Of a DNA stretch of 64,000 bases, positions 14,834-35,382 are shown one piece after another (positions within the stretch are counted from its first letter, which is position 1; each line of letters opens with the position of its first letter). The notes beneath the pieces are model-generated. The model was given only the letters and a program-made list of their open reading frames with translations. It was not told the DNA's origin and searched no databases. The translations under genes were made by a program, and so were the position numbers. Origin of the DNA: Bacteroidales bacterium (GTDB lineage: Bacteria; Bacteroidota; Bacteroidia; Bacteroidales; UBA10428); NCBI GenBank assembly GCA_050287785.1, contig JBNKCO010000018.1, forward strand, positions 73,149-137,148, in the 5' to 3' direction.

Positions 14834-16171
14834 TCACTCGATAAATTCCCCTAAATAATATAGTCTCAAAAGATCCTTTTTGAGAAGAGTTTCATATCTC
14901 AAAAGTATATGCGCATTTTCGATTTCATTGAATTGTTTTTTATAAGACAAAACGGTAAATATATTGTCTTTTCCATTTGAATATAATTGCATCCGATTAC
15001 TCAGAATTGTTCTAATACTTAATAACTCTTGCTCTGCTAATGTGAGCTGTTCATTTGTATACTTTGCTTCAAAAAACTGATTCTTTAGTGAGTTTATAAT
15101 AATCATGTATTCTGATTCGATAGTATTTTCATGTTTTCGAATATCGTTTTCACTCAATAAAATCTGTGTTTTTATTTCCCTATTATTAAAAATTGGAATT
15201 GTTAATCGCAAACCAGCAAAACCAGAATAGGAATTCTGAAGAAACGACTCCCAATTACCTCCCTCTGCCCAAGGCTGAAAGCTTGAGTATCCGACTGTCA
15301 AGGAATAGTCAAGACTCAAAGTAGGTAAATTTTTGGCTCGAATAATTTGATGATTCCCTTTCAGATAAGATTGATGCAAATTTAAAATTTTGAGATATGG
15401 ATTATTCTCAACTGATACCTTTTCGAAAATATTATAGTTTTTTAATATGGTATCTGACTCTGTTTTAATACTCTCATAAAAAGTATAATCAAGGTCTAAA
15501 CTATCTTTTGTTTGAAGTGTGTTATTCAGTTTAATAATAGCTAGATCGTAATTTTTCTGCGCAATAAGGAGACTTTTTCTTTCTTGGATTAGTTGTAGTT
15601 TTGATTCTTCGACATCATTCTGCATGATTTTACCTAACTCAAACAATTTTTCTGTATAAGTTAATATACTATCAGCTATATCAAGTTGCTTTCTATTCGC
15701 TACTAATTGTTCATGGCTAAACAAAACTGTAAAGAAGCTTTCAATCACCTTACCTGTGATATCAAACATTGAATACTCTGCTTCAGATAATTCTCTATTC
15801 AAAGATATATTCGCAAGCTTTACTTTCTTCCAGTTATTAAACCAATTGAAAAGCATCGTGTTTCCGTTCAAGGAAAATGTACTGGAATAATTCTCCAAAA
15901 CCGGGGAATGTATTTCATTATGATTAATATTATGTGTAAAGGATGCATTTATTGAAGGAATAAATCCTAATTCAGCATTGCTAACACTATATTCCGCATT
16001 TTGAATTTCAACATCGGCATTTTTCAACTCTACCCTATTTTCTAATGCAATATCGATGCAATCAGATAGTTTAAGTTTTTGCTGTCCCAGCAATATTGGC
16101 TTTATAAGAAAGCTAAGGAGTATACTAATAATTGCGATAGTATGTGCCCTGGGTTTGGTATTTATTTGCAT
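14834..16171 (-). CDS. TolC-like outer-membrane efflux protein (OEP family)
   Basis: 445 aa; signal sequence; two coiled-coil/beta repeat halves typical of outer-membrane factors; 6 nt downstream of the C39 ABC exporter. Confidence 0.8.
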   Translation of the reverse strand: MQINTKPRAHTIAIISILLSFLIKPILLGQQKLKLSDCIDIALENRVELKNADVEIQNAEYSVSNAELGFIPSINASFTHNINHNEIHSPVLENYSSTFSLNGNTMLFNWFNNWKKVKLANISLNRELSEAEYSMFDITGKVIESFFTVLFSHEQLVANRKQLDIADSILTYTEKLFELGKIMQNDVEESKLQLIQERKSLLIAQKNYDLAIIKLNNTLQTKDSLDLDYTFYESIKTESDTILKNYNIFEKVSVENNPYLKILNLHQSYLKGNHQIIRAKNLPTLSLDYSLTVGYSSFQPWAEGGNWESFLQNSYSGFAGLRLTIPIFNNREIKTQILLSENDIRKHENTIESEYMIIINSLKNQFFEAKYTNEQLTLAEQELLSIRTILSNRMQLYSNGKDNIFTVLSYKKQFNEIENAHILLRYETLLKKDLLRLYYLGEFIE

Positions 16172-16177
16172 ATGATA

Positions 16178-18367
16178 TTAGTTTTTTGAGAGTTCTTCTT
16201 TAAAATGTATCTCATTATACATCTGGCTGTAAAGATTATCTGTTTTCATCAAGGTTTCTTTAGCACCTGAAATTTCAATAGTATTATTCTGAAGGATGTA
16301 GATTTTATCTGCTTTGTTTGCAATTTTCAGTTGATGGGTAACCAAAATTATCCCACATTTTTCTCTAAACTTGTTTAACACAGACAATGCAAAATTCTCT
16401 GTATTCCTATCCATTGCAGAAGTAGGTTCGTCGAGCAATAACAATGATGGCTTTTTAGTTAGAGCTCTACATAAACTAATCAATTGTTTTTGCCCGCCAG
16501 AAATATTAATTCCTTCTTCACCCAACATTGTGGAATAACTTTGAGGAAACAAAGAGAAATATTTATCAAATTCATGCTTTTGACAAAATTCAATGCACCT
16601 ATTTACTTCATTTTCATCTCCGCCCATGCATAAATTATCCATTAATGTTCCATTGAATATGGAAGCCTCCTGGGGTACTACACCTAGAATGTGGCGGTAA
16701 TCTGGTGGAAATACATTGTCTAGGTTACTGTTATTTAAAAATGTTTTACCACTTTCTGGTTTATAGAACCCTTGCAATATATTTAGCAATGTAGTTTTTC
16801 CGCCTCCACTCTCACCTAGAATAGCAACAACTTCACCTTTACTCAGAGATAAGTTTATATTTGATAGTATTTGTTTCCTTCCCGGAAAACGATAACTAAC
16901 GTTTTCTAATTCAAGGCTTTTGAAGGATATATCAATTGTAGTTCGTTCTTCCTGAATATTATATTCCGGATTAATAGTTGCAAATTCATACATTCTGTTG
17001 AAAGCTACTTTTGCTCCTTGTAGAGTAATATTTGCAAAGGCCAAAGAAGCTATTGCTGGAAATAAAGAGCCTGTTATACCTAAAACAGCCATTAGTGTTC
17101 CTGTTGACATACTAGTAGACACAACTAACCATGAACCTAGGCCCAAGACACCAATTGTTATAATTACCCCAACTATATCAGCAAGAGCCTGAATGCTTAT
17201 GCCTAGTTTACCTAGGTGAAATATTTTATCCTGAAAATGGCCGTAAATTAGCTGATTAATATTTGTAAAAATATTCTCTTTGTTTTGTGTTTTGATTGAA
17301 CTAACACATTCCATTGTATTAATATAATTGCTTGTTTTATGGGAGTTTGCTGACATTACTTCTTGTTGGGCATTTACAATATTCTTATGGTATTTAAATG
17401 ATATAAATGCAAATATTGGTAAGCTTGAAATTACAATAGTCCCAATAATTCCGGAATAAACGAATAATACAACCAAACCTACTACTACTAAAAGAAAATT
17501 CATCAGCAATTCCATAACAACCTGAGTAATTGCAATCTGTATTCTGGAGGTATCGTCCATACGTGCAACAAGTTCTCCTACTCTTCTGTTATCAAAAAAT
17601 GATTTAGGTAGGAATAAAAGGCTGCTATAAAAACTGCCAATTAACCTGATATTAAAACCTTTACTTTGAGTAATTCCAAAGAATCCGGTAAGGTACGATA
17701 AACCACTGCGGGCGATTAGAAGTGTTAATAGTAATATTGTACCAAGAATAATTTTTTCGTAATCTTTTTCTGGTAGAATAACATCAATTAACTTTTGGGA
17801 ATAAATAGCCATGCCAAGACCAAGAGCAGATACCATAAGGCTTAAAATGAATATGATACCAAGCAAACTTTTATCCTCTTCTATTATTTGCTTAAACCAT
17901 TTTATTTTATTCTTTTTTTCTTTTTGAACTTTCTCGAAACTACTATTGGGTGTTAATTTTAAAAGAGCTTTTGAGCGCCAGATAGCTTCTAATTCCTGCT
18001 CTGTATATTTAACAATGCCCTTTGCCGGATCTCCAATAATAAATTTCCCTGAATTAAAACGATAGCAAACAACATAATGCTGCATACTGTTATCTAAGAT
18101 AACGTGAAGAATAACAGGCGTTTCATTTTTTTTCAACCATTCAATTCCTACCTCAAGCCCTTCTGCATTAAAACCACATTTTTGCGAACTCTGATATAAA
18201 CCTAAAATAGTTGTGCCTTGTTTAGAAGTACCGCTTAACTCTCTGAGTTGTTCAAGACTTTTTCTGCCACCGTTATAATTAATAACCGATAACAAACAAG
18301 CTACTCCACAGTCTGACTGATCTTGTTGAACAACAAATGTTTTAGATAGACTTTTCTTTTCTTTCAT
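16178..18367 (-). CDS. peptidase C39-containing ABC transporter (PCAT, bacteriocin processing/export)
   Basis: 729 aa; N-terminal C39 domain (QQDQSDCGVACLLSVINYNGG, later HYVVCY); 6-TM domain; Walker A GESGGGKTT, signature ISGGQKQ, Walker B LLLLDEPTS. Confidence 0.9.
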   Translation of the reverse strand: MKEKKSLSKTFVVQQDQSDCGVACLLSVINYNGGRKSLEQLRELSGTSKQGTTILGLYQSSQKCGFNAEGLEVGIEWLKKNETPVILHVILDNSMQHYVVCYRFNSGKFIIGDPAKGIVKYTEQELEAIWRSKALLKLTPNSSFEKVQKEKKNKIKWFKQIIEEDKSLLGIIFILSLMVSALGLGMAIYSQKLIDVILPEKDYEKIILGTILLLTLLIARSGLSYLTGFFGITQSKGFNIRLIGSFYSSLLFLPKSFFDNRRVGELVARMDDTSRIQIAITQVVMELLMNFLLVVVGLVVLFVYSGIIGTIVISSLPIFAFISFKYHKNIVNAQQEVMSANSHKTSNYINTMECVSSIKTQNKENIFTNINQLIYGHFQDKIFHLGKLGISIQALADIVGVIITIGVLGLGSWLVVSTSMSTGTLMAVLGITGSLFPAIASLAFANITLQGAKVAFNRMYEFATINPEYNIQEERTTIDISFKSLELENVSYRFPGRKQILSNINLSLSKGEVVAILGESGGGKTTLLNILQGFYKPESGKTFLNNSNLDNVFPPDYRHILGVVPQEASIFNGTLMDNLCMGGDENEVNRCIEFCQKHEFDKYFSLFPQSYSTMLGEEGINISGGQKQLISLCRALTKKPSLLLLDEPTSAMDRNTENFALSVLNKFREKCGIILVTHQLKIANKADKIYILQNNTIEISGAKETLMKTDNLYSQMYNEIHFKEELSKN

Positions 18368-18742
18368 TTTGGACTAGTCTTTTAAAATAAAAACTTCGGT
18401 GCTTTTTTATATGTGATAGATTGTGATTGTATTGGTAAAATATTAAATATCGCAAAAACAAAATCCGCATTCATCACTACTCTTATACAGTCTTTAAAAA
18501 CTAGCCTTTTCCCCATTAGAAGACAACCAATATAGAGGCAACAGGTAGCGAAAATTGATTTCACAAAAAGAATCAGAATATTACTAATGTAACCTAGCCA
18601 TCCAGAAAGTTAAAATGGCATGTGAACTAGATATCACTCCATACCTCAATAAGGGTTTAGTGAAAATTAAGGCATAAGTATTCCGATTCTGAAAAGATCA
18701 ATGGGATTCTTCAAAACAATAATTACTATGTTTGCAATTAAT

Positions 18743-19246
18743 TTAACTTAACAATGAAGCTATTTTTAAATCAATCATTTTTCTTAAATACGAATGATAG
18801 AATGTTCCCCATAAAGGTTTATCTTGAAAGTACGTTATATCATTTTTATCGGTTTCAATAACAACTGGAATTTCAAAAGCGGCCCAATGTTTATTTGAAA
18901 GCTTTGAGCAAAACTGTTTTGCGTCTTCATTAGCTGTGTTTCCAATTAAAACAGCAATTGAAACAACTCCTGAATGCAAACCTCTGGGTAAGCCTTTCTT
19001 ATTTTTTAAAGCATATTTATAAACACTTTGAGAATAATGTTCAATTTCTTCAGGTGAAATAATTGCATTTTTAGAAATCCCAACACTAATAAATATATTT
19101 AGTTGAGTGGCGAACCAAACTAACTTAAACTTATTAAATTGTGCTATAATGCTTTCTGCATTGTAGTCAAATTTATATTTGGAATGGAAAATATTACTGC
19201 CTATAGATTCCATTTCAAAGCGTTTTAATAATTCTGTTTTACTCAT
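18743..19246 (-). CDS. hypothetical protein (167 aa), unknown function
   Basis: Long ORF co-directional with the bacteriocin run; no motif recognised. Confidence 0.55.
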   Translation of the reverse strand: MSKTELLKRFEMESIGSNIFHSKYKFDYNAESIIAQFNKFKLVWFATQLNIFISVGISKNAIISPEEIEHYSQSVYKYALKNKKGLPRGLHSGVVSIAVLIGNTANEDAKQFCSKLSNKHWAAFEIPVVIETDKNDITYFQDKPLWGTFYHSYLRKMIDLKIASLLS

Positions 19247-19846: not shown

Positions 19847-20053
19847 TTAGTGAAGCTTATCAACTAACTTTTTTTCCTTGATGCCCTCAACTATTAAAGT
19901 CAATCCAGCTAGGAGAAATGCAGTCCACCCAATCCAATCAATAATCCTAATATCAAGTTCGTTAACAAATCTATCTATCACATAAATAATAAGGATAGCA
20001 AATAGTACTATCCCAAAATAAATTTTTGTGTTTGGTTTTAATATTCTTTTCAT
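19847..20053 (-). CDS. small two-TM membrane protein (candidate immunity/accessory)
   Basis: 68 aa with two hydrophobic helices (IYFGIVLFAILIIYVI; WTAFLLAGLTLIV). Confidence 0.5.
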   Translation of the reverse strand: MKRILKPNTKIYFGIVLFAILIIYVIDRFVNELDIRIIDWIGWTAFLLAGLTLIVEGIKEKKLVDKLH

Positions 20054-20121: not shown

Positions 20122-20649
20122 TTACAAACATGTGTTTTGTTTCGTTAAACTTTCTATTATCTGGTCGTTAAGCTTGAATTCGTACTTATTGACCAACTGT
20201 CCTTTATAGAAAATGTATGTACTGGGAGTATGTCTTATTTTAAAATAAGTATTACCCACCTCTTCTACTGAATAAGATAATATCTTTAATTGTTTATCAA
20301 CAAAGGGGAAGTCTTCTTTGAATTCAATAAGTTTTTGTAAATCTTGTTCAGAAACAAGTAAAATCTGAAATTTATCCAATAATTTATTACTAGAAGATAT
20401 TAATTGAATTTCATCCCAACACAGATAACAGTCAGTATTAAAGAAAACTATCATAAGGTTTTCTCTGTTTATAGAATCAGAATTATACTCTTCACCCGAA
20501 AGGTTCATAAATGAAAACTTAGGTAGATTAGCTATTCCTTTTAAATCCTCGCGTTTTTTCAAAACTATATTCGCAACAAAAAAAAGCAGAATACAAATGA
20601 TAATAAAATAGGACGTATTTATAATTGTACGAGATTTACCAGAAATCAT
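20122..20649 (-). CDS. membrane-anchored thioredoxin-fold thiol-disulfide oxidoreductase (TlpA/redoxin-like)
   Basis: 175 aa; N-terminal TM anchor (YFIIICILLFFVANIV); redox motif FFNTDCYLCWDE (CxxC); 4 nt from the upstream gene. Confidence 0.75.
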   Translation of the reverse strand: MISGKSRTIINTSYFIIICILLFFVANIVLKKREDLKGIANLPKFSFMNLSGEEYNSDSINRENLMIVFFNTDCYLCWDEIQLISSSNKLLDKFQILLVSEQDLQKLIEFKEDFPFVDKQLKILSYSVEEVGNTYFKIRHTPSTYIFYKGQLVNKYEFKLNDQIIESLTKQNTCL

Positions 20650-20653
20650 AATA

Positions 20654-21295
20654 TCATAAAGTTAGAAATAATAAAGTAATCATTAAAAGGAATAGAATCA
20701 TAAAGGCACCATATCCAAACAATCCTATTTTTAGACTGTCAACAAGTTTAAGGTTTTTGTTTTTCTTATATAGAAACCACGATATTAATAAACCATAAAG
20801 CACCTCAAACACATTTATTTTTGACATTGCAAAATACAACCAATTATAGGTTTCTGCTACATTAGGAAAAACCCCTATTAAAGAAAACAATGTTGTTGGA
20901 TTTATGTCACCTCCATAATTGAGTAATAGAACAATATTCATTATACCAGACACTAACATGATAGACTCTGATAACAAGACTATTCTTATCCCGTCATAAG
21001 TAGTGATGGAAATATTCCTTAGTAACCCTGTTGTACGAATTGCTGTAAGTACAAAGACAATTTTTAAAAGAAAAAAAACAACAACTTCAAGATATATTAA
21101 CCAAGTAAATTTCTGTTGCAAGGAAAACATTTTTTTTATTGCTTCTGTATTAATGTACCCCTCTTTTGAAAAAAGATTAACATAAAAATCATAGTCCATT
21201 ACTTTATTAAGTAGCAAATACGACAGTATCAATTTAATCAAAAGTATTATCAGAAGAATTTGAGCATTACTAATAACAAAGGTGTGTATTTTCAT
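20654..21295 (-). CDS. polytopic membrane protein (about 5-6 TM), candidate bacteriocin immunity
   Basis: 213 aa, hydrophobic helices throughout; first gene downstream of the bacteriocin precursor. Confidence 0.65.
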   Translation of the reverse strand: MKIHTFVISNAQILLIILLIKLILSYLLLNKVMDYDFYVNLFSKEGYINTEAIKKMFSLQQKFTWLIYLEVVVFFLLKIVFVLTAIRTTGLLRNISITTYDGIRIVLLSESIMLVSGIMNIVLLLNYGGDINPTTLFSLIGVFPNVAETYNWLYFAMSKINVFEVLYGLLISWFLYKKNKNLKLVDSLKIGLFGYGAFMILFLLMITLLFLTL

Positions 21296-21337
21296 TTACT
21301 AAAGCTTTTTTAACTCATATTAATGTATCAATGTAAA

Positions 21338-21361
21338 TGCCTGTGCAATATAATACAGGCA
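21338..21361 (-). terminator. weak hairpin between bacteriocin gene and downstream genes (possible attenuating terminator)
   Basis: 7-bp stem tgcctgt / acaggca with 10-nt loop; only a T-poor tail on the minus strand. Confidence 0.3.
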
Positions 21362-21386
21362 CTTACAATAAAGTATATCTAATTAC

Positions 21387-21590
21387 TTAAAAACCACATG
21401 CTTCTCCCATTGCAATAGCGCCATAACTTGATGCTACAAAGCCCCCAGCACAAGCCAAACCTACAGAAGCAGCGCAGGTAGCAGCTGATATTACAACTAC
21501 TCCAGCATATAAGCCAATCATAATACCACATTTCCAACTGCCACCTTCAAGGTTTTCCATTTGTTCTAAACTTAAACTTTTCGTTTTCAT
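21387..21590 (-). CDS. double-glycine-leader class II (Blp-like) bacteriocin precursor, 4-Cys glycine/alanine-rich core
   Basis: MKTKSLSLEQMENLEGG / SWKCGIMIGLYAGVVVISAATCAASVGLACAGGFVASSYGAIAMGEACGF. The leader fits LSxxELxxIxGG. I prefer the ATG at 21590 over the track start at 21614. Confidence 0.85.
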   Translation of the reverse strand: MKTKSLSLEQMENLEGGSWKCGIMIGLYAGVVVISAATCAASVGLACAGGFVASSYGAIAMGEACGF

Positions 21591-21689
21591 AATTTTAATT
21601 TTTAAATTAGACATTAAGTTGAATTAATGTCCCCGTTGGCGCCTAACAGAGACAAAGCTTTATTTTGGATTTAACAAAACTCAAATAAA

Positions 21690-22157
21690 TTACTGTCCTA
21701 GAGGATTATTGTCCACATATCCATTCTTCCTAAGATATTGTTGAATGGCCATGTTTAAGCCCATACCCCATTGTTGTCCTAACACCATACTTTCTTGCGA
21801 AATAGCCGGAGTTTTTTCAGCTAATTTTTTGCCAGTTTCCGATTGATAGAAAGCGATAATTGCTTTTATATCTTCATGAGTAAAATGTTTTTGATAAATT
21901 GGAATTAGTTTCTTGCTAAACGATGTAACTTGCTCATCGAACACCTCTGTTTTAATTTCTGACCACGCCTTATCAGGTACATCTGGCATTGTTGCTTTTA
22001 GTTGCGCTACCATCTGATCGAAAATCATGTCATAGCTTTTTAACGACCCATTAAGTTTCTGCATTTTAGCAACATCTTTTGCAAACTGATCATCTTGCCC
22101 TATTAGGTTGGATGAGAACATTATTGCTACTATGGCAAATTGAAAAAACAACTTCAT
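21690..22157 (-). CDS. DUF2059-like periplasmic protein
   Basis: Signal peptide; IPIYQKHFTHEDIKAIIAFYQSETGKKLAEKTPAISQESMVLGQQWG resembles the DUF2059 signature. Confidence 0.7.
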   Translation of the reverse strand: MKLFFQFAIVAIMFSSNLIGQDDQFAKDVAKMQKLNGSLKSYDMIFDQMVAQLKATMPDVPDKAWSEIKTEVFDEQVTSFSKKLIPIYQKHFTHEDIKAIIAFYQSETGKKLAEKTPAISQESMVLGQQWGMGLNMAIQQYLRKNGYVDNNPLGQ

Positions 22158-22215
22158 AATGATTTAATTGTAAGGTTAATATTAACAGTATCAAAAATAT
22201 AAATGTAGAGTGCCA

Positions 22216-22455
22216 CTATAAAGCACTCGTAAAAAAAGACTCAAAAAAATTGAATTCATTCTTAAGAATATATGTGTTTTTGCATTTGCAAAACTCAATT
22301 TCTGCACCAAGGCTTCTTAGCTCATCCAGGTAACGAAATAAAGTTCGCCTTGAAATTTGCATTCTTGTTGCAAGCTCCTCTGATGTTCCTCTATTTTCCC
22401 TCTTTATAAATTCGACAAGCTGTGCCATCTTTAGTATGTAATTTTGGTTGCTCAT
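22216..22455 (-). CDS. small HTH (HTH_11/DeoR-N-like) transcriptional regulator
   Basis: 79 aa; TSEELATRMQISRRTLFRYLDELRSLG helix-turn-helix; alternative start at 22428. Confidence 0.65.
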   Translation of the reverse strand: MSNQNYILKMAQLVEFIKRENRGTSEELATRMQISRRTLFRYLDELRSLGAEIEFCKCKNTYILKNEFNFFESFFTSAL

Positions 22456-22460
22456 ACTGA

Positions 22461-23543
22461 TTATTTTAAGTCTGTGTCGGGAATTTTAACTTGATTGCCT
22501 AATTCCAAACCTTCAAGTATTTCTGTTTTAACGCCATCTGATATTCCGGCAATCATTGCTTTCTTAATGTATTTGTTCTCAACATCGTGCACATAAACAA
22601 AAGCACTGTCTTCTTCATAAGATATGTATTTTTCTTCTAAACATAAAACACTATCCTTCTCTGCAATTGTAATAATAGCAACTGCATTTATTCCTCCGTA
22701 AAGTTTTTGGTCGCAGTTTATTATAGCTGCCTCAACTGGAAATTTAACTATCCCATTTTTATCTATTCCTTTCGGATATATTTTATCTATCTTCCCTTTA
22801 ATCTTAACTCCTTCAGTAAAAACAGTCTCGATAAATAATTCCTGTTCTTTATAAATTTTATTCAAATCCCTTTCCTGTATTTCTCCAAAGAATTTCAATG
22901 AATTCATATTAGCTATAACAGCAATAGTTGTTCCTTCGTTAAAGTTGTTTTGCTTGATTACAGGGGAACCCGGTTTTGCAAACAATGTCAAAATTGTACC
23001 AGAGGCAGATGCATATATAATATTTGATAATTCCTTGTCCGAAGTAATAACTCCCTTTGTTGCCATTAGGAGTTTTTTTCTTGCACTTTCGAATTGTTCT
23101 ATTGTTTCTTTATATTTTGCATCAACACTTTCAAATTCTGCTTTTGAGCTCAGCCCTGCTTCGCACAAACTCCTTTCTCGTTCATAGTTTATCTTAGCCG
23201 TATTTTTCTGAATTTCAAAAAGACTAACTGCCGATTTTAGGCTTTCAACATCCATGGGTTCTGTTAGATTTCTAATTTCTGCAATCTTTTGCCCCTCTTC
23301 AACTACTTGGCCAACTTCAACAAAAACCTTTTCAACAATACCATTTATTTTTGATTTAACCTTTATCTCCTCTGCAGGCATTATTTTCCCATTTATCCTC
23401 CTGTCAATTTTTATTGATTCTATTGTGGGGTTGCCTATTAGATAATTAGATGTCACGTCTTTGCGATTGATCTCTTTGAAAACAATCATGCCAATAACTC
23501 CAACAAAGAATACCAGTAGCAATATATTTAAGAGTTTTTTCAT
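22461..23543 (-). CDS. efflux periplasmic adaptor (MFP, HlyD/MacA-like)
   Basis: 360 aa; N-terminal TM anchor; lipoyl-like hairpin (INGIVEKVFVEVGQVVEEGQKIAEI), coiled coil, beta-barrel. Confidence 0.85.
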   Translation of the reverse strand: MKKLLNILLLVFFVGVIGMIVFKEINRKDVTSNYLIGNPTIESIKIDRRINGKIMPAEEIKVKSKINGIVEKVFVEVGQVVEEGQKIAEIRNLTEPMDVESLKSAVSLFEIQKNTAKINYERERSLCEAGLSSKAEFESVDAKYKETIEQFESARKKLLMATKGVITSDKELSNIIYASASGTILTLFAKPGSPVIKQNNFNEGTTIAVIANMNSLKFFGEIQERDLNKIYKEQELFIETVFTEGVKIKGKIDKIYPKGIDKNGIVKFPVEAAIINCDQKLYGGINAVAIITIAEKDSVLCLEEKYISYEEDSAFVYVHDVENKYIKKAMIAGISDGVKTEILEGLELGNQVKIPDTDLK

Positions 23544-23672
23544 TATTTATTAGATTTAGTCTCAAGATGTGAGACATTAGACATGAGACTATCTGAATTC
23601 ATTATTTTAAATTTTTAATTCTCCATTATTCATTATAAATTACAAATTCTTCTCTCTTAACTCTTCACCCTA

Positions 23673-24926
23673 TCATAAACTCCTCATCGCTACAACCGGT
23701 TTAATTTTCGCAGCCTTAAAGGCCGGAAGAAATCCTGCTACAAGTCCTGAAAATAATAATATCGTAATAGCAAGAACTATGTATTTTGGCTCAAGTGCAG
23801 TATGTGTAAAAAATCGATCATCACCTGTGCTTTTTGAAACCATAAGGTTTATTAACTTTAGAAATCCTGTACCAATCACCAATCCTAATATTCCAGACAA
23901 AATAGTTAGAATAACAGATTCAAAGAGAAACTCTTTTAGAACCACAACAGAGGATGCTCCAACTGCTTTTTTTATCCCGATCTCACGAGTTCGCTCTTTT
24001 ACAATAATGTACATAACATTACTTACTCCAATCATTCCACTTAGTAACAAACAGCAACCAACGAAAACAAAAAAAATGTTTAAGCCATTAAAAAGTTTTG
24101 AAAAGCTCGACATTTGTTCTTCATAGTTCACTACATATAAAGCTTTATTATTATTACTATCGAAATGATACTTTTTTGCTAATAATGATGTTATTTTCTC
24201 GGCATACCATTTTGTGTTTCCATCTGCTACAGTAATACCGAAAGACTTAAATTCATGAATAGGCTTGATAACTTCTGAAAAGCTTGTGTAAGGAATGAAT
24301 ATACAGTTTTGTTCATTCATCGACATTAGCGACTTATTATCCATAATTCCAACTACTAGAAAGTCTGTTCCGTTAACAGAAATGTTTTTATTAATTGGGT
24401 TGGAATTGCTGAAGAACTGTTTAACAATTCGGTCTCCGATTATGCAAATATTTCGGCCTTCATGGATATCGCGCTTATTGATTCTTCGTCCTTGTTTAAC
24501 TTTAAGGTTTTTTAATTTAAAGCTTTGTGTATTTATACCCTTTATTGTGAAATGTCCTCGTTCAGAATTATGTATTACAACTGTTCCGGAATTCTGAATT
24601 TCTGGAGATATTGCAATAATATTTGGAATACTTTTTTTTATTACTTCCAAATCAAAGAATTTAAAAGTAATATCTTTTCCTGAATCGCGCATTGAAATAT
24701 TTTCATCAGATTCTCCGCCGTAAAACATGATGGTTTTTTGAGTAAATCCTTTAAATAATCTATATACTCCTTCCTGCACTCCTCCACTAATCCCTAAGAG
24801 AACAATTAGAATAAAGATTCCCCAAGCAATTCCAAAAGAAGTTAGCAGGGTTCTTAATTTGTGAGCTTTAAGATTACTGTATATTTCTTTAACTAATTCA
24901 TAATATTTCTGAAAAGGCACTTTCAT
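23673..24926 (-). CDS. MacB-type ABC permease (MacB periplasmic core domain + FtsX)
   Basis: 417 aa; N-terminal KLRTLLTSFGIAWGIF helix, large periplasmic loop, three C-terminal TM helices, EIGIKKAVGAS motif. Confidence 0.85.
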   Translation of the reverse strand: MKVPFQKYYELVKEIYSNLKAHKLRTLLTSFGIAWGIFILIVLLGISGGVQEGVYRLFKGFTQKTIMFYGGESDENISMRDSGKDITFKFFDLEVIKKSIPNIIAISPEIQNSGTVVIHNSERGHFTIKGINTQSFKLKNLKVKQGRRINKRDIHEGRNICIIGDRIVKQFFSNSNPINKNISVNGTDFLVVGIMDNKSLMSMNEQNCIFIPYTSFSEVIKPIHEFKSFGITVADGNTKWYAEKITSLLAKKYHFDSNNNKALYVVNYEEQMSSFSKLFNGLNIFFVFVGCCLLLSGMIGVSNVMYIIVKERTREIGIKKAVGASSVVVLKEFLFESVILTILSGILGLVIGTGFLKLINLMVSKSTGDDRFFTHTALEPKYIVLAITILLFSGLVAGFLPAFKAAKIKPVVAMRSL

Positions 24927-25632
24927 AAAAGGGCTGAGATTGGATTAGGGTTTTATCATTGACTATTCTGCCATCAACTAAATTAATTATTCGATTTGTT
25001 TGGGCTGCAATATTATTATCGTGTGTAACTAATATAATTGTTTTTCCTTCTGAGTTGATATCTTCTAATACAAGCATTATTTCTTCCGATGTTTTTGAAT
25101 CTAAAGCACCTGTTGGTTCGTCGGCCAAAATAATTTTTGGATCAGTTATTAAAGCTCTTGCAATTGCAACTCTTTGTTTTTGTCCTCCTGAAAGTTCATC
25201 AGGCAAATGTTTTGCTCTATCTGACAAACCCAATTTATCGAGAAAAAACATTGCTTTCTCTAATCTTATCCTATTTGAGAAATTCTGATAATATAAGGGA
25301 AGAGCAACATTTTCAATAGCTGTCCGATGTGAAAGAAGATTAAATGATTGGAAAATAAAACCGAGTGTTGTACTTCTTAATAAAGCTTGTTCACTATCGG
25401 TTAAATTTTTAGTTGATTTACCATTCAGAAAATATTCTCCGGAATCGTATTCATCAAGTATACCAATAATGTTTAGCAAAGTAGATTTTCCACAACCAGA
25501 TGGGCCCATTATAGAAATATACTCACCTTGTTTAATACTTAAACAAAGTTTATCTAACGCCACAACTGTATTTGAATGCGTTGAATAGTCTTTCCTTAAT
25601 TCTTTTATTTCTATTAACTTATTTTGAGACAT
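24898..25632 (-). CDS. ABC ATP-binding protein (MacB/LolD-type)
   Basis: Walker A GPSGCGKST, signature LSGGQKQRVAIARAL, Walker B ILADEPTGALD. ATG at 25632 preferred over the TTG at 25644. Overlaps the permease by 29 nt. Confidence 0.9.
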   Translation of the reverse strand: MSQNKLIEIKELRKDYSTHSNTVVALDKLCLSIKQGEYISIMGPSGCGKSTLLNIIGILDEYDSGEYFLNGKSTKNLTDSEQALLRSTTLGFIFQSFNLLSHRTAIENVALPLYYQNFSNRIRLEKAMFFLDKLGLSDRAKHLPDELSGGQKQRVAIARALITDPKIILADEPTGALDSKTSEEIMLVLEDINSEGKTIILVTHDNNIAAQTNRIINLVDGRIVNDKTLIQSQPFYESAFSEIL

Positions 25633-26068
25633 TCCTTTTAACAATCAATTGAAAAAACATATTTTAATTAAAGGGTTGAAAATGATTATAATCCTATATT
25701 TTACATTGTAATGATACAACCGAAAAGATAACAATGAAAATATTTTATGCTAATGCGGCTAATCTCTATTCCAATGAAGAAACCTGCACCACTATTGAAA
25801 AATAAGAAAACTTGTTTTAGTGTAAATGCGCACAAAGTGAACCAATAAATTGACTTTGTATTCAATGCCTTATATAGTCGGCTTAGCATGCAAGGTATGA
25901 CTAATTATATTCTGTCTATAAGCTTCACTAACTTCGTTGCACTCTACTTGAAATCCAGTCATTCCGATGCACGTTCGGGACTCCTGAACCCCAGGTCTCT
26001 CGCGCCTCGTTATTGATGCTTACAGAACAGACTTTTGGAAAAATGCAGACTTTATGGACAAACTCTAA

Positions 26069-28574: not shown

Positions 28575-29297
28575 CTAAGAAATATTCAATGCCTTAAGCA
28601 CCCCTTTTTTATAAGTTATTCCTATTGGGATATTTACTTTTTTATTCTTCCTTTCAATTAATATCTCACTACCTCTAACCGATTCTATTTTATCAATTGC
28701 CATTATATAAGACTTATGAATTCTAATAAAAATATCTTTTGGCAATATCTCCATTATGGAATTCATTGATTTATAAATAATATGCTTATTTTCTTCCATC
28801 ACAATTATAATATAATTCCTAGCAGCTTCAATGTATAGAATATCGTTAAAATCAATTTTAACCTTTTTCCCATCTACATCGGCAAAAAAGAAATTATGAA
28901 TTGGTTCTGCAGTTCTCTGTTTGTCCAGATCATTTAAAATTCGATCTACCGATTTTTTAAATCTTTTAAATGTTACTGGTTTCAATATATAATCAGATAC
29001 TCCCAACTCGTAACCGCTTAAAGTATAATCAATGTGCCCGGTTGTTAAAACTACATGCGGAATATTATGGCCCCACCTTTCTTTCATATTCTCAATTAAA
29101 TCAATTCCAGTAAATTCGGGCATTTGTATATCCAAAAACATTATATCTGGCTTATTGCTATCTAAAAAAGCAAGTACATCAATAGACTTGGTGCTTGCAT
29201 ACATTAATGCTAGCTGTGGTATTTTATTTATATGGTCTTTAATAAGGTTAATTGCCTCTTCCTGGTCATCGACAACTATGCAATTGTATTGTTTCAT
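28575..29297 (-). CDS. LytTR-family response regulator
   Basis: Receiver (IVVDDQE, FLDIQMPEFTG, ILKPV) plus LytTR domain (FIRIHKSYIMA). Confidence 0.9.
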   Translation of the reverse strand: MKQYNCIVVDDQEEAINLIKDHINKIPQLALMYASTKSIDVLAFLDSNKPDIMFLDIQMPEFTGIDLIENMKERWGHNIPHVVLTTGHIDYTLSGYELGVSDYILKPVTFKRFKKSVDRILNDLDKQRTAEPIHNFFFADVDGKKVKIDFNDILYIEAARNYIIIVMEENKHIIYKSMNSIMEILPKDIFIRIHKSYIMAIDKIESVRGSEILIERKNKKVNIPIGITYKKGVLKALNIS

Positions 29298-29316
29298 TGT
29301 TTTTTTTGTGAATTTC

Positions 29317-30357
29317 TTAACTATTAATCCTCAGTATACTATAATACATATTTTCTTTTTCTTCAGTAATCAACTCATAATTTTCGCTATAATGCAGATT
29401 AAGTATTTGCCTTGCGTTTTCAAGGCCTATACCAGAGCTTACTACATTTTTATTTTTATTTATCATGTTCTTCACATAAAACTCTATTTGATTTTCAGTA
29501 ATTACCAACTTGATTTCAATTGGATTTTCCTTTGTGCTATAAACTCCATGTTTAAAGGCATTTTCCACAAAGGTTATCAAAACTCTGGGATATATAGTAA
29601 TGCCATCCAAATTACCCTTGGTTACAATATCCACAAACACATCTTTGTTGAGTATTTTACGTAAACTAATATAATTGCTTAAGTATCTAATTTCATCCTT
29701 TAACTGAACGGTAACTTCAGGAGCATAGCTGGTATAATAACGTAACATGTCAGAATATTTCTCAATCGCTCTAGCAGTTTCTTTCGAGCATTGATTAGCG
29801 ATACTATAAATATGGTTTAAGAAATTAAACGTAACATGTGGATTAAACTGATTTTTAAAAAAAAACAGTTCCTTTTTTAAAAGGGCGGTGTCTTTTTCAT
29901 TCTGTAATCTAATTTTTTGCATTTTAAGTTTCCTAAAATAATAGGAAAAAGCAACAAGGCAAATTATAAAAAACCATGTAGAATAAATCCTAAAAAACCT
30001 TTGACTTGGAAATAAAAGTTGAGGTTTAATTTTTAAAATGGTAACATCATAGATAAAATAGGAATTCAAGTAACCAATAAAATAATAAACAAGTAATTGA
30101 ACAATAAAAAAGGTGAAAAACAACAGTTTCCCTTTAGGCCAAAATTTTGGTAAAGTGAACATTATCAATCCATAAAAAGCGACTAAATGATTAACATAAA
30201 GTATAGAGTTAAATATTATCTTCCCTGGATATATTTCTTTAATTTGAGCTGTATTATATAAATATACAATTAGCACAATCCAAATAGCAAAATGACTGAT
30301 GATATTCTTATTGAATTGATTTGTCACCTTATTTTTATAGACTAAAATCTTTCGCAT
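29317..30357 (-). CDS. membrane histidine kinase (PF06580 type) without a large sensory exo-domain
   Basis: 346 aa; about 5 N-terminal TM helices; H-box FNPHVTFNFLNHIYS; FVENAFKHG; SGIGLENARQIL. Confidence 0.85.
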   Translation of the reverse strand: MRKILVYKNKVTNQFNKNIISHFAIWIVLIVYLYNTAQIKEIYPGKIIFNSILYVNHLVAFYGLIMFTLPKFWPKGKLLFFTFFIVQLLVYYFIGYLNSYFIYDVTILKIKPQLLFPSQRFFRIYSTWFFIICLVAFSYYFRKLKMQKIRLQNEKDTALLKKELFFFKNQFNPHVTFNFLNHIYSIANQCSKETARAIEKYSDMLRYYTSYAPEVTVQLKDEIRYLSNYISLRKILNKDVFVDIVTKGNLDGITIYPRVLITFVENAFKHGVYSTKENPIEIKLVITENQIEFYVKNMINKNKNVVSSGIGLENARQILNLHYSENYELITEEKENMYYSILRINS

Positions 30358-31375: not shown

Positions 31376-32389
31376 CTACCATATTATGGTTAACGTGCTG
31401 GTGTAAAATTCATTTAATTGTTTAATATCTATTTTGTACTTTCCTTTATAATGCATTTCCAGGATTTGTTTCAAATTGTCTTCACCTAAGCCAGCTAAAA
31501 TTGGTTTCTTATGTCTGGTTATTTTGTTTTTTACCGAAAAATCAAGTCTCTCTTTGCTAGCTTTCATGTTTATTTCAATAGGATATTCCTTGTTGTTTAA
31601 CTGCTCACGTATAAAGACATTCTCAACAAATGTCACTAAAAGTCGTGGTAAAATCGATTTATTCTTAGCCTTATTCTCGTAGTTAAAAACTACATACAAT
31701 TCTGAACTTAGCGCTTTTTGCAACTCAACAAAATTATCTAGATACTCAATCTCATGTTCCAGTGGAACACTTTCATTAAGATTAGTTCTTAATGAATATT
31801 CCAGCATATCAGAAAACACTTCTATCGAGTTTGTTGCTTTTTCAGAATATTTGTTCAAATGGCTGTAGCAAAAGTTTAAAAAATTAAAGGTTAAATGGGT
31901 GTTAAACTGTCCTTTAAGAAAATCAAGTTCGTTATTAATCAATACTTCTTCTTTTTGTTTTTGCAGGGCGAGTTTGTATATATTCAATTTGTTCAAATAA
32001 AACACAAATGCACAGGAACCTATAATAGAAAGTTGAAGAATTGCATCAATAATAAAAACTGTTACAGGTTTTCCATAAAGCTTGCTAGTACCACCAAGTT
32101 TTGGAACTATATACATCACCCTCACATATTTAATCAAAACAAATACAATAAAAACAGTACACAAACTCATAAAAAAAACTAAAAATTGTTTTGTATAGAG
32201 TTTTGGGAAAATATTTAAGGCCAGGGCATAGTATAAAAATATATAATTCCCAAATCCTACAGCACCACCAATTATATTTACTCTAACATCTCCGGGAATT
32301 GGATCAATTAGCATTATAAATGCAATAATTAGTACCCAACTGAAAAAGTGTTTCTTTAATTCTTTATTAGGTAGAGTAAAAGGATTCAT
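31376..32389 (-). CDS. membrane histidine kinase (PF06580 type), paralog of 29317-30357, no adjacent response regulator
   Basis: 337 aa; about 5 TM helices; H-box FNTHLTFNFLNFCYS; FVENVFI and AGLGEDN boxes are somewhat degenerate. Confidence 0.8.
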   Translation of the reverse strand: MNPFTLPNKELKKHFFSWVLIIAFIMLIDPIPGDVRVNIIGGAVGFGNYIFLYYALALNIFPKLYTKQFLVFFMSLCTVFIVFVLIKYVRVMYIVPKLGGTSKLYGKPVTVFIIDAILQLSIIGSCAFVFYLNKLNIYKLALQKQKEEVLINNELDFLKGQFNTHLTFNFLNFCYSHLNKYSEKATNSIEVFSDMLEYSLRTNLNESVPLEHEIEYLDNFVELQKALSSELYVVFNYENKAKNKSILPRLLVTFVENVFIREQLNNKEYPIEINMKASKERLDFSVKNKITRHKKPILAGLGEDNLKQILEMHYKGKYKIDIKQLNEFYTSTLTIIW

Positions 32390-33085: not shown

Positions 33086-35382
33086 ATGCCCTTTAAAATT
33101 CATCCGAAATTAATATTACGCTCTCCAAGTTTCCATTTTAAAGGATTAAAAACATAAAGAAATACATTAAACAGTTAAATATATCTTATAAAGAAAATAG
33201 AATTTTACAGACTGACCTGGTAAAAGAAGCCAAAACCTCTAAACTCAACCAGGGAATTCAAAAAACTCTGAAAAACGGTATTAACGCTTTACTGTATTTC
33301 ACACAAAAACCGATAAAATATAACTTAGAAAAGTTTAAAGAATCGTTTGTTAAAAGATACGAATTGAAAGAGGTACCCTTACTAAATGCCCTTGATACAG
33401 AAACCGGACTTGGCTACCCCATTGTCATTATTGGCAGCAAAACACCTCTAATTGAAAATATTGCTTTTACGCTTCATGAAACAAATAGTATTGCTTTTAA
33501 TGAAAGAGATAAGATTTGTCTGGAGATATTACAAAAGGCTCACTTGTTTAATGATTATTCTGTAGACATTAAAGATTTTATTTCGAACAAACCTAAACCA
33601 AATTGGGATAGTCTACCTCCTTCGTTTTCAGCAATGTTCAGAGTAACTAATTTTGAGAAAAATGAAATTTTTCTGGAATCGGTAGGGGGGAGCAGTGCGA
33701 TAAATCTTTTAGGCAGATTTGCACATACCGACAAGCAGATACACGAAATAATATCGAAAATAGCTAATGAAGAGCAAAAAAATAACCCTGATGTTATTTT
33801 TGCTGAGATAGCTCACAATCCGGAGAATCGTACGGGAAATATTATCTCACACCCTGCTTTTAGAGATTATGAAATCCCAATTGTATCTTCATCTAACCCA
33901 AATGTTAAGCATTCAATTGCATTGTGTGATCTTTTATTATCAGTAAGAAACAACAGGATTATTCTAAGGTCGAAAAAGTTAGACAAAGAAATAATTCCTC
34001 GATTAAGCAATGCACATAATTTTCCCAAGAGTGAACTACCTATATATAGGTTTCTGTGCGATCTTCAAACACAAAATAACAATTCATCACTTTCATTCAA
34101 TTGGGGAAGTCTATCAGACAATTTTCTGTTTCTTCCTAGAATAACACATGATAATACAATTCTCAGTCTTGCTACCTGGAAATTGCCAAAAAGCGAACTA
34201 CTCATCTTAACAAAGAATAAGAATGCTTATTTGCTTTTGCCTGAATTTCTAAAGAAATGGAAGATTCCAAATCAAGTAGTAATTGCTGACAGAGATAACG
34301 AGCTATTTATTGATTTTAGTAATGATTTATCTGTTGAAGTTTTTTTAGACGTAATAAGAAAAAAAGAAAGCATTGTTTTAAAAGAATTTCTTTTCGATGA
34401 AAATACTCCTATTGTCGATGAGAATGGGAAAAGATATACTAATCAGTTTATAGCCTCTTTCGTAAAAGATGAAGCTGTTTACAAGAGGAAATCTTTTTCC
34501 CATGAATCGAATATTGAAGTTAAGCGTGAATTTACGCCAGGTTCTAAGTGGGTATATTTAAAATACTATTGTGGAACAAATACAGCTGACAACCTGTTAA
34601 GCGATATTATTAAGCCAATAGCTGATAAATTCCTAAAAGAACAAATTATTGATAAATGGTTTTTTATACGTTATCGCGATGAAGATGAACACTTAAGGGT
34701 AAGATTCCACATAACTAACACAAAGTATCTCTCCGAGGTAATGCAAACAAACTCAGGATACACACAGAAATATATCGACCAAGGTCTTATCTGGAAAGTA
34801 CAAACCGACACTTATATTAGAGAAATAGAGCGGTATGGTGCTGCAACAATGGAATTAAGCGAACAGCTTTTCTTTTATGATAGCGAAGCTATTTCAATAT
34901 TTCTATCATCAATTGATGAAACTACTGATACAAACATACGATGGCTATGGGGAATAAAAGCCATAGACACTCTAATGAATTGCTTTGGCTTAGAGCTGGA
35001 AGATAAAAAGAAATTAATGGAGCAATTAAAAATTGCATTTGCAAATGAGTTTAAGTTAGAAAAACCATCCAAGCTTCAAGTTGATAAGAATTATCGAAAA
35101 TACTCTAAGCAGATATGTTCTGCATTAGATAATAATTTGGAGGAAAATCCCTTGTATTCTTACCTGAATATTATTGAAGATTATCAAATTAATATCTTGA
35201 AAATTGCACCGAATATAATTTTAAGAACGTCTAACTCTTCTGATTTATGGAGTTATCTCAAAAGCTATATTCATATGCATATTAATAGGTTGCTAAAAAG
35301 CTCTCAACGCCTAAATGAAATGGTTATTTACGATTACATTTATAGGTACTATCGTTCTCTTATGGCCAGGGGAAATAAATAA
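33086..35382 (+). pseudogene. lanthipeptide dehydratase (LanB-like), 5'-truncated and frameshifted
   Basis: MPFKIHPKLILRSPSFHFKGLKT* (33086-33157) is in a different frame from the 33142-35382 ORF. That ORF has FKESFVKRYELKEVPLLNALDTETGLGYP, which lies ~380 aa into NisB but ~90 aa in here. C-terminal elimination domain present (WVYLKYYCG..WFFIRYRDEDEHLRVRF..ERYG). Confidence 0.7.

Follow-up and report, generated by a model that had tools for sequence, protein, structure and literature searches.

A predicted doubly stapled, Gly/Ala-rich class-II-type bacteriocin encoded with bacteroidetocin-type machinery in a Bacteroidales genome

Which product is specified by the short open reading frame (ORF) at positions 21387-21590 of a 64,000-nucleotide stretch of a Bacteroidales genome, and by which route would it leave the cell? 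The whole stretch is hereafter referred to as the window. An initial annotation had described the ORF as a Blp-like class II bacteriocin with a mirror-symmetric cysteine pattern. We propose, at a probability of about 0.68, that the gene encodes the precursor of a secreted class-II-type bacteriocin, unmodified save for its disulfides, that would be handled by machinery of the bacteroidetocin type. Doubly stapled, Gly/Ala-rich cargo travelling with such machinery, and resembling both the Gly-rich class II bacteriocins and microcin V, is a well-supported prediction rather than a surprise.

The peptide gene is genuine. Its minus-strand ORF has 67 codons, is closed by a TAA stop at 21387-21389 and specifies 67 amino acids (aa), a 17-aa leader followed by a 50-aa core.

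21540-21590, minus strand: double-glycine (GG) leader of 17 aa, MKTKSLSLEQMENLEGG; it fits MKxLxLxQMExxxGG, the consensus of Bacteroidota leaders, extended by 2 aa at the N-terminus
21390-21539, minus strand: core peptide of 50 aa, SWKCGIMIGLYAGVVVISAATCAASVGLACAGGFVASSYGAIAMGEACGF; its four Cys are residues 4, 22, 30 and 48, and two helices (2-24 and 29-48) separated by a loop (25-28) are predicted

An alternative in-frame ATG upstream, at 21614, would give a product of 75 aa; the start at 21590 is the likely one, because the relatives begin with the MK of a leader of 15-17 aa. The key leader residues are L-12, S-11, M-7, L-4 and the GG. The core consists for 40% of Gly and Ala, is neutral (one Lys, one Glu; isoelectric point 5.7), has a grand average of hydropathy (GRAVY) of 1.33 and contains six Ser/Thr besides its four Cys. 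Small-xxx-small motifs occur 16 times, versus 11.2 +/- 1.8 in shuffled versions (P = 0.008). The Cys residues form an exact mirror about residue 26 (4+48 = 22+30 = 52), the true middle of the core being 25.5; four randomly placed Cys give an exact mirror with a chance of 0.04, and a mirror that is also centred with a chance of 0.004. The leader positions, the Gly/Ala richness, the motifs and the symmetry had all been read correctly in the initial annotation, and the general description of a class-II-type, bacteriocin-like peptide with a double-glycine leader in a Bacteroidota genome is supported as well.

The surroundings of the gene identify its probable machinery. In order of transcription the minus strand carries a MacB-type pump, an HTH_11 protein, a DUF2059 protein, the peptide, a 213-aa membrane protein, a thioredoxin-like protein, a 68-aa protein, a 167-aa protein, an ATP-binding cassette (ABC) exporter and a TolC-like protein. 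The genes that bear directly on maturation and export are the following.

20654-21295, minus strand: polytopic, Cys-free membrane protein of 213 aa, of a family found in bacteroidetocin-type loci; no Pfam or NCBIfam match
20122-20649, minus strand: thioredoxin-like protein of 175 aa with a single membrane anchor at the N-terminus and CYLC as active site; weak AhpC-TSA and ResA matches
16178-18367, minus strand: C39-peptidase ABC exporter (peptidase-containing ABC transporter, PCAT) of 729 aa with Peptidase_C39, ABC_membrane and ABC_tran domains
14834-16171, minus strand: TolC-like outer membrane efflux protein of 445 aa with an OEP domain, 6 nt after the exporter gene

All machinery genes are present and look intact, as do the peptide ORF, the leader and the Cys pair. 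Residues Q14, C20, H97 and D113 of the exporter as well as its ATPase motifs are invariant in the exporter alignment; on TIGR01193 the protein scores 415 bits, below the cut-off of 524. In the thioredoxin-like family the CxxC is 97% and the cis-Pro, P142, 100% conserved, and the membrane-protein family has N161, E164, Y167 and Y195 as conserved residues.

Related loci were collected by a survey anchored on the exporter, which comprises 80 named loci and, for the family counts, 100 loci in all. The 80 exporter loci carry Bacteroidota labels except for one Veillonella and one Balneolaceae. Most of them show the order GG-leader peptide(s), membrane protein of ~215 aa, CxxC thioredoxin-like protein of ~175 aa and exporter. 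BLAST and hidden Markov model (HMM) searches seeded with the window's membrane protein found its family in 71 of the 100 loci, and the thioredoxin-like family is present in 81. Both counts include locus L099, at 1e-35 for the membrane protein and with a BLAST E-value of 2e-11 for the thioredoxin-like protein; L099 is the locus of Nubsella zeaxanthinifaciens TDMA-5, one of the 19 published bacteroidetocin loci (Coyne et al. 2019, PMC6671954). A word-indexed search with the membrane protein alone matched nothing but itself, and the family is seen only via the exporter-anchored loci. The best exporter match, at 64% identity, lies in L026 from a Marinilabiliaceae metagenome-assembled genome (MAG); the L099 exporter is 44% identical. 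L026 also has an extended order in common with the window: adaptor, helix-turn-helix (HTH) protein, DUF2059 protein, peptide, membrane protein, thioredoxin-like protein, exporter and, farther off, a TolC-like gene (L026:14591-15925) whose product is 44% identical to that of the window.

Bacteroidetocins, proposed as class IIf, are described with this same four-gene set; their activity needs each of peptide, membrane protein and oxidoreductase, cleavage after the GG was shown by mass spectrometry, and Bacteroides lacks general disulfide machinery (Coyne et al. 2019, PMC6671954). The published criteria include a leader of 15-16 aa ending in GG and a mature peptide of 42-53 aa (Coyne et al. 2019, PMC6671954). 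Like the described loci (PMC6671954; Matano et al. 2021, PMC8546649), the window combines a polytopic membrane protein of the five-transmembrane-segment family, a thiol oxidoreductase and a C39-peptidase ABC exporter, and its membrane and thioredoxin-like proteins fall in the HMM families of the Nubsella locus. The core of 50 aa lies inside the published range, and its four Cys, as in bacteroidetocins A and B, exceed the minimum of two. The leader ends in GG as theirs do but counts 17 aa against 15-16, owing to the 2-aa extension that is also present in L024, L026 and L102. The window additionally has the DUF2059 protein, the HTH regulator, the MacB-type pump and the TolC-like gene. Bacteroidetocins are known to target BamA, and the window offers no sign of the same target. 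It is this closest system, with its membrane protein, thiol oxidoreductase and peptidase-exporter, that the initial annotation overlooked.

The core itself is another matter. Taking Nubsella-type cores as a proxy for bacteroidetocins A-D, we found no core similarity: the window core is Gly/Ala-rich, neutral and a predicted helical hairpin, versus FWG...YYVLG-type cores in the Nubsella-like peptides. BLAST of the window peptide against a Nubsella peptide aligns the leader only, and hhalign of the two core groups returns a probability of 0.06%. The FWG...YYVLG group comprises both Nubsella peptides and 41-aa, four-Cys peptides from Bacteroidales MAGs. Set against these cores, rather than against all 19 published peptides, the window peptide appears to be a different cargo type.

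Close relatives of the peptide are few. A word-indexed search of 5.8 billion proteins matched the peptide only to itself; with a two-sequence profile the same kind of search matched only P0003 and P0004, both metagenomic peptides. An exhaustive HMMER search of 1.84 billion representatives retrieved P0003 and the long, low-complexity P0002, which was rejected as a relative, its match being judged compositional. A metagenome scan added the peptides of L102 and L103/L104. Since peptides this small often escape gene calling, the rarity of relatives is to be read as a lower bound on their number. P0003, P0004 and L102 have the leader in common, in the forms MKELSLEKMEMIEGG and METKKLSLEQMENLEGG, the latter being that of L102 and near-identical to the leader of the window. 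They also have the start of the core in common with the window ([SG]W.C / KCGI..GLY), and P0003 and P0004 end in ACG. All four closest relatives that were checked keep the outer Cys pair and lack the inner one; in P0003 and P0004 the place of the window's C22-x7-C30 is taken by APPAG.

This pattern extends to the wider cargo of the machinery. In 48 loci the cargo survey yielded 66 different leader peptides. Exactly two Cys occur in 51 of them, the first at a median core position of 5 and the last at a median distance of 4 residues from the C-terminus. Half of the peptides (33/66) contain at least 30% Gly+Ala, many with a central Pro/Gly turn (APPAG, NP..G, GP.GW). In the alignment of 41 related Gly/Ala-rich cores, C4 and C48 are the sole Cys conserved at 90% or more, and the inner pair C22/C30 is unique to the window among the relatives compared. 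Near-mirror arrangements of four Cys recur in Gly/Ala-rich peptides of L064 (5, 13, 35, 45 of 48), L081 (2, 9, 45, 51 of 57) and L094 (7, 18, 35, 48 of 49); the four-Cys peptides of the FWG...YYVLG type show no near-mirror pattern.

AlphaFold2, run with the core alignment, predicts helices at residues 2-24 and 29-48 and between them a loop (25-28), at a mean predicted local distance difference test (pLDDT) score of 73.5, with the loop at the mirror centre. In the predicted register small residues face one another at G5/A47, G9/A43, A12/G40, A19/G33, A20/G32 and A23/A29. Provided that the two-Cys relatives form a disulfide between their two residues, C4 would pair with C48 in the window peptide, leaving C22 with C30, a nested pattern. 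Judged from the alignment and the model, the core is probably a two-helix hairpin with nested C4-C48 and C22-C30 disulfides. The helical hairpin stapled in this way, as put forward in the initial annotation, is thus backed by the conservation of the outer pair, the near-mirror relatives and the predicted helix-loop-helix, with the connectivity deduced rather than seen. A Foldseek search against the PDB returned nothing, and a sequence profile search of the PDB gave only a chance match to PetM.

How could these parts work together? The precursor would be translated with its 17-aa double-glycine leader, and the C39 domain of the exporter is predicted to cut after Gly17 while the 50-aa core is moved across the inner membrane. 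The core Cys may then be oxidised in the periplasm by the anchored CxxC thioredoxin-like protein, together with the Cys-free polytopic membrane protein. A role of the latter as a DsbB-like re-oxidiser was considered and dropped, as its sequence has no cysteine. Neither DsbB (PF02600) nor VKOR (PF07884) was found at E <= 0.01 across the genome, which is 98.6% complete. The putative product would be an antiparallel two-helix hairpin with small-xxx-small ladders on both helices, in which C4-C48 ties the ends and C22-C30 closes the turn. It may exit via the TolC-like channel, possibly through the co-located MacB-type pump. In Escherichia coli, MacAB-TolC carries a peptide with a disulfide bond out of the periplasm. 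The window's pump is a candidate for the release step and could equally be an immunity pump. Once outside, the core would act on the envelope or membrane of competing bacteria; its composition points to membrane insertion, resembling the helix-helix packing of two-peptide bacteriocins.

Several findings weigh against this proposal. The peptide passes no threshold of a curated family. Its core is neutral and so hydrophobic that solubility and the crossing of a target's outer membrane are hard to account for. The fold model is of moderate confidence only (the mean pLDDT of 73.5) and comes without Cys-Cys distances. The exporter lacks a paired canonical adaptor of the HlyD type, the nearby adaptor belonging to the MacB-type pump. 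Two unrelated genes and a gene remnant lie between the thioredoxin-like gene and the exporter, which makes the locus a rearranged mosaic. Finally, the exact Bacteroidota -7 motif (TAnnTTTG) is absent from the 100 nt upstream of the peptide gene; the motif is not enriched in the window, its nearest copy on the correct strand being at 22192-22199, upstream of the DUF2059 gene, and a sigma-70 promoter scan was uninformative.

Could the peptide then be a true Gram-positive Gly-rich bacteriocin of the Blp or class IIc-IIb kind (PF10439/TIGR03949), acquired or inherited and acting like its kin, with the Bacteroidota context secondary? Its best curated matches are to TIGR03949 (E 0.012) and PF10439 (E 0.079), and of the 41 related Bacteroidota peptides 15 match PF10439 at E <= 0.1 (best 5e-7), nine the MccV model of Pfam, i.e. 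microcin V, six TIGR03949 and five TIGR01847. The scores of the window peptide nonetheless stay well below the cut-offs, at 15.4 versus 21.5 bits for TIGR03949 and 13.4 versus 27.1 bits for PF10439, and the matches include the generic leader and biased Gly/Ala stretches; for the leader model TIGR01847 no match of the peptide is listed at E <= 10. The window contains no second GG-leader or partner peptide that we could find, the leader is of Bacteroidota type, the accessory genes all belong to Bacteroidota-specific families, and the labels of the 80 nearest exporter loci agree with this apart from the two mentioned above. A Gram-positive bacteriocin in this sense is unlikely. What the peptide has in common with the Firmicutes Gly-rich class II peptides is its GG leader, a hydrophobic core rich in Gly and Ala, and packing motifs of the small-xxx-small kind; it differs in being a single chain with two predicted helices and a disulfide staple, with a dedicated oxidoreductase and a Gram-negative producer that has a TolC-like gene. 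The Blp comparison of the initial annotation is a fair description of the look of the peptide, not a family assignment: the likeness holds and extends to relatives, the membership does not.

A more heavily modified ribosomally synthesised, post-translationally modified peptide (RiPP) would be either a lanthipeptide, made via the nearby LanB, or a glycosylated hairpin resembling glycocins. We regard this as very unlikely. The six Ser/Thr and four Cys of the core and a lantibiotic dehydratase at 33364-35382 fit the former, but that LanB ORF is on the other (plus) strand, 12 kb off, and lacks about the first 320 profile positions of the N-domain (match 322-649); with this N-terminal truncation and no LanC among the nearby ORFs of at least 150 aa, the lanthipeptide was dropped. 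Glycocins such as sublancin and glycocin F are helix-loop-helix peptides with two nested disulfides and mirror-like Cys, as predicted for the window peptide, and their loci comprise a GG-leader peptide, a peptidase-exporter and thiol-disulfide oxidoreductases, as the window does, together with a glycosyltransferase (PMC12457901). A GT1 glycosyltransferase also stands beside the exporter in L001 and L013, the loci of P0003 and P0004, and in L081. However, the homologue of the relatives' glycosyltransferase is absent from the window, its sole match in the genome being weak and on another contig; moreover, the peptide has no sequence similarity to glycocins, its predicted helices are longer and hydrophobic, and its Cys spacing is x17 versus x6.

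Double-glycine peptides exported by peptidase-ABC transporters include pheromones. The product could accordingly be a signalling peptide, no toxin at all, that is sensed by neighbouring histidine kinase and LytTR regulators, genes for which are located at 28575-30357 and 31376-32389. Known pheromones are 17-27 aa long, unlike a 50-aa, neutral, membrane-like hairpin with four Cys; this kinase and regulator cassette lies outside the synteny with L001, L013 and L026, and the dedicated oxidoreductase points to a structured product. Signalling as the main function is hardly to be expected. A non-toxic exported membrane peptide, be it a small constituent of the envelope or the cargo of a gene that is decayed or silent within a rearranged locus, would explain the extreme hydrophobicity, the remnant with the two inserted genes and the fact that no immunity gene is recognised with confidence in the locus. 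It is made quite improbable by the intact ORF, leader, Cys pair and machinery and by a sporadic, species-specific distribution that is typical of competition genes. None of the genomes of the genus's 24 other species contains the peptide or the 213-aa membrane protein, and the locus is therefore accessory.

A secreted, disulfide-bonded bacteriocin also finds a Gram-negative parallel in the class II microcins of the microcin V type, with a GG leader, a Gly-rich core with disulfide(s), and a peptidase-ABC exporter with a TolC-type channel (PMC12219008, PMC9746304). The window peptide differs from them in giving no match to MccV (PF17508) and in that no CvaA-type adaptor is paired with its exporter, while a dedicated oxidoreductase and membrane protein are present.

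More tentatively, the bacteriocin proposed here may stand for something larger. It is possible, and less than probable, that Gly/Ala-rich helical hairpins with a terminal disulfide form a large cargo class of a Bacteroidota export-and-oxidise module, non-homologous to toxins of the bacteroidetocin A type, and that they are single-chain counterparts of class IIb bacteriocins that target membranes and not BamA. If so, the second, turn-closing disulfide of the window peptide would replace the Pro/Gly turn of its relatives, and helices of the glycine-zipper type would be joined in one chain. Relatives that carry a GT1 would then be Gram-negative glycocin-like peptides. Four bacteroidetocins have been tested by experiment, all of them from Bacteroidales; the survey suggests that in environmental Bacteroidota the machinery mostly carries other cargo, namely hydrophobic hairpins with one or two staples. 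Should the 50-mer prove active, it would provide a compact and chemically simple scaffold with two disulfides and no other modification, to which the one-staple relatives with a Pro/Gly turn offer the natural comparison. The system would also bear on how Gram-negative cells without DsbB or VKOR oxidise and release very hydrophobic peptides.

The glycosyltransferases mentioned above are of the UDPGT type and are encoded at L001:4475-5848, L013:2795-4195 and L081:3987-5333. L081 stems from a Cytophagaceae MAG, and its four-Cys peptide has the pattern C-x6-C ... C-x5-C. Going by gene content, the three loci are possible glycocin-like systems in Bacteroidota.

The remaining genes of the locus are as follows.

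22461-25644, minus strand: MacB-type pump, consisting of an ABC ATPase (24898-25644), a MacB/FtsX permease (23673-24926) and a periplasmic adaptor (22461-23543)
22216-22455, minus strand: putative regulator of 79 aa with a match to the HTH_11 family
21690-22157, minus strand: DUF2059 protein of 155 aa with a hydrophobic segment at its N-terminus, whose gene immediately precedes that of the peptide; L026 (53% identical), L022 and L038 conserve it in this position
19847-20053, minus strand: protein of 68 aa that has two hydrophobic segments and lacks a homologue across the 100 related loci
18743-19246, minus strand: soluble protein of 167 aa outside the canonical locus; no family matches and no homologue in related loci
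18436-18600, minus strand: remnant covering profile positions 59-113 of 211 (E 9e-16), immediately upstream of the exporter; it derives from a second gene of the membrane-protein family

The adaptor of the pump is 57% identical to its L026 counterpart, which takes the same position (L026:5831-6907). In L029 and L035, too, the exporter is followed by MacB-type genes; such genes and TolC-like ones are missing from most related loci. In L001 (37%) and L013 (30%) the gene immediately upstream of that for the peptide encodes a homologue of the HTH_11 protein, and L026 has it in the same order as the window (55%). The 68-aa protein with its two hydrophobic segments would be the most plausible immunity candidate.

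The remnant, of 55 residues, and the protein encoded in L022, a Prolixibacteraceae locus, share 41% identity. Judging by this piece of a membrane-protein gene, an older cassette appears to have been truncated. Compared with L026, the HTH, DUF2059 and exporter proteins are 53-64% identical, and the intact membrane and thioredoxin-like proteins only 21-30%. We infer from these comparisons that the cassette of peptide, membrane protein and thioredoxin-like protein was swapped in, truncating the older one.

Between the peptide and membrane-protein genes the transcript can form a hairpin, which the initial annotation had noticed in part, as a weak structure at 21338-21361.

21332-21367, minus strand: RNA hairpin with a 13-bp stem (one G.U pair) and a 10-nt loop; no U-tract

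It does exist and is larger and stronger than had been described. The 90 nt past the peptide stop fold at -20.2 kcal/mol, versus -10.5 +/- 3.3 kcal/mol for random 90-nt windows of the locus (z = -2.9). A terminator scan did not call the hairpin. The corresponding 90 nt past GG-leader peptide genes in 59 relatives (L021-L100) fold at a mean of -16.6 kcal/mol, versus -13.8 kcal/mol for random windows of the same loci (Wilcoxon p = 0.004), and z is below -2 for 20% of them. This enrichment fits a raised level of the peptide message or partial termination, and the hairpin 3' of the window's peptide gene probably raises the peptide message relative to that of the downstream genes.

Leaders of 17 aa, starting with MKTK... 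or METK... instead of having the usual 15 aa, are found in L024, L026, L102 and the window. Three of the four such leaders other than the window's belong to L024 and L026, whose exporters resemble that of the window most closely; this hints at co-variation of leader and peptidase. Elsewhere in the genome, a second C39-peptidase ABC exporter is encoded on contig C47 (127295-129514, plus strand), 30% identical in the peptidase domain, and another GG-leader ORF on contig C7 (230929-231087, minus strand) specifies MTKKRAQKNEIMTLSFNEMALIKGG followed by a Lys/Pro-rich, Cys-free tail.

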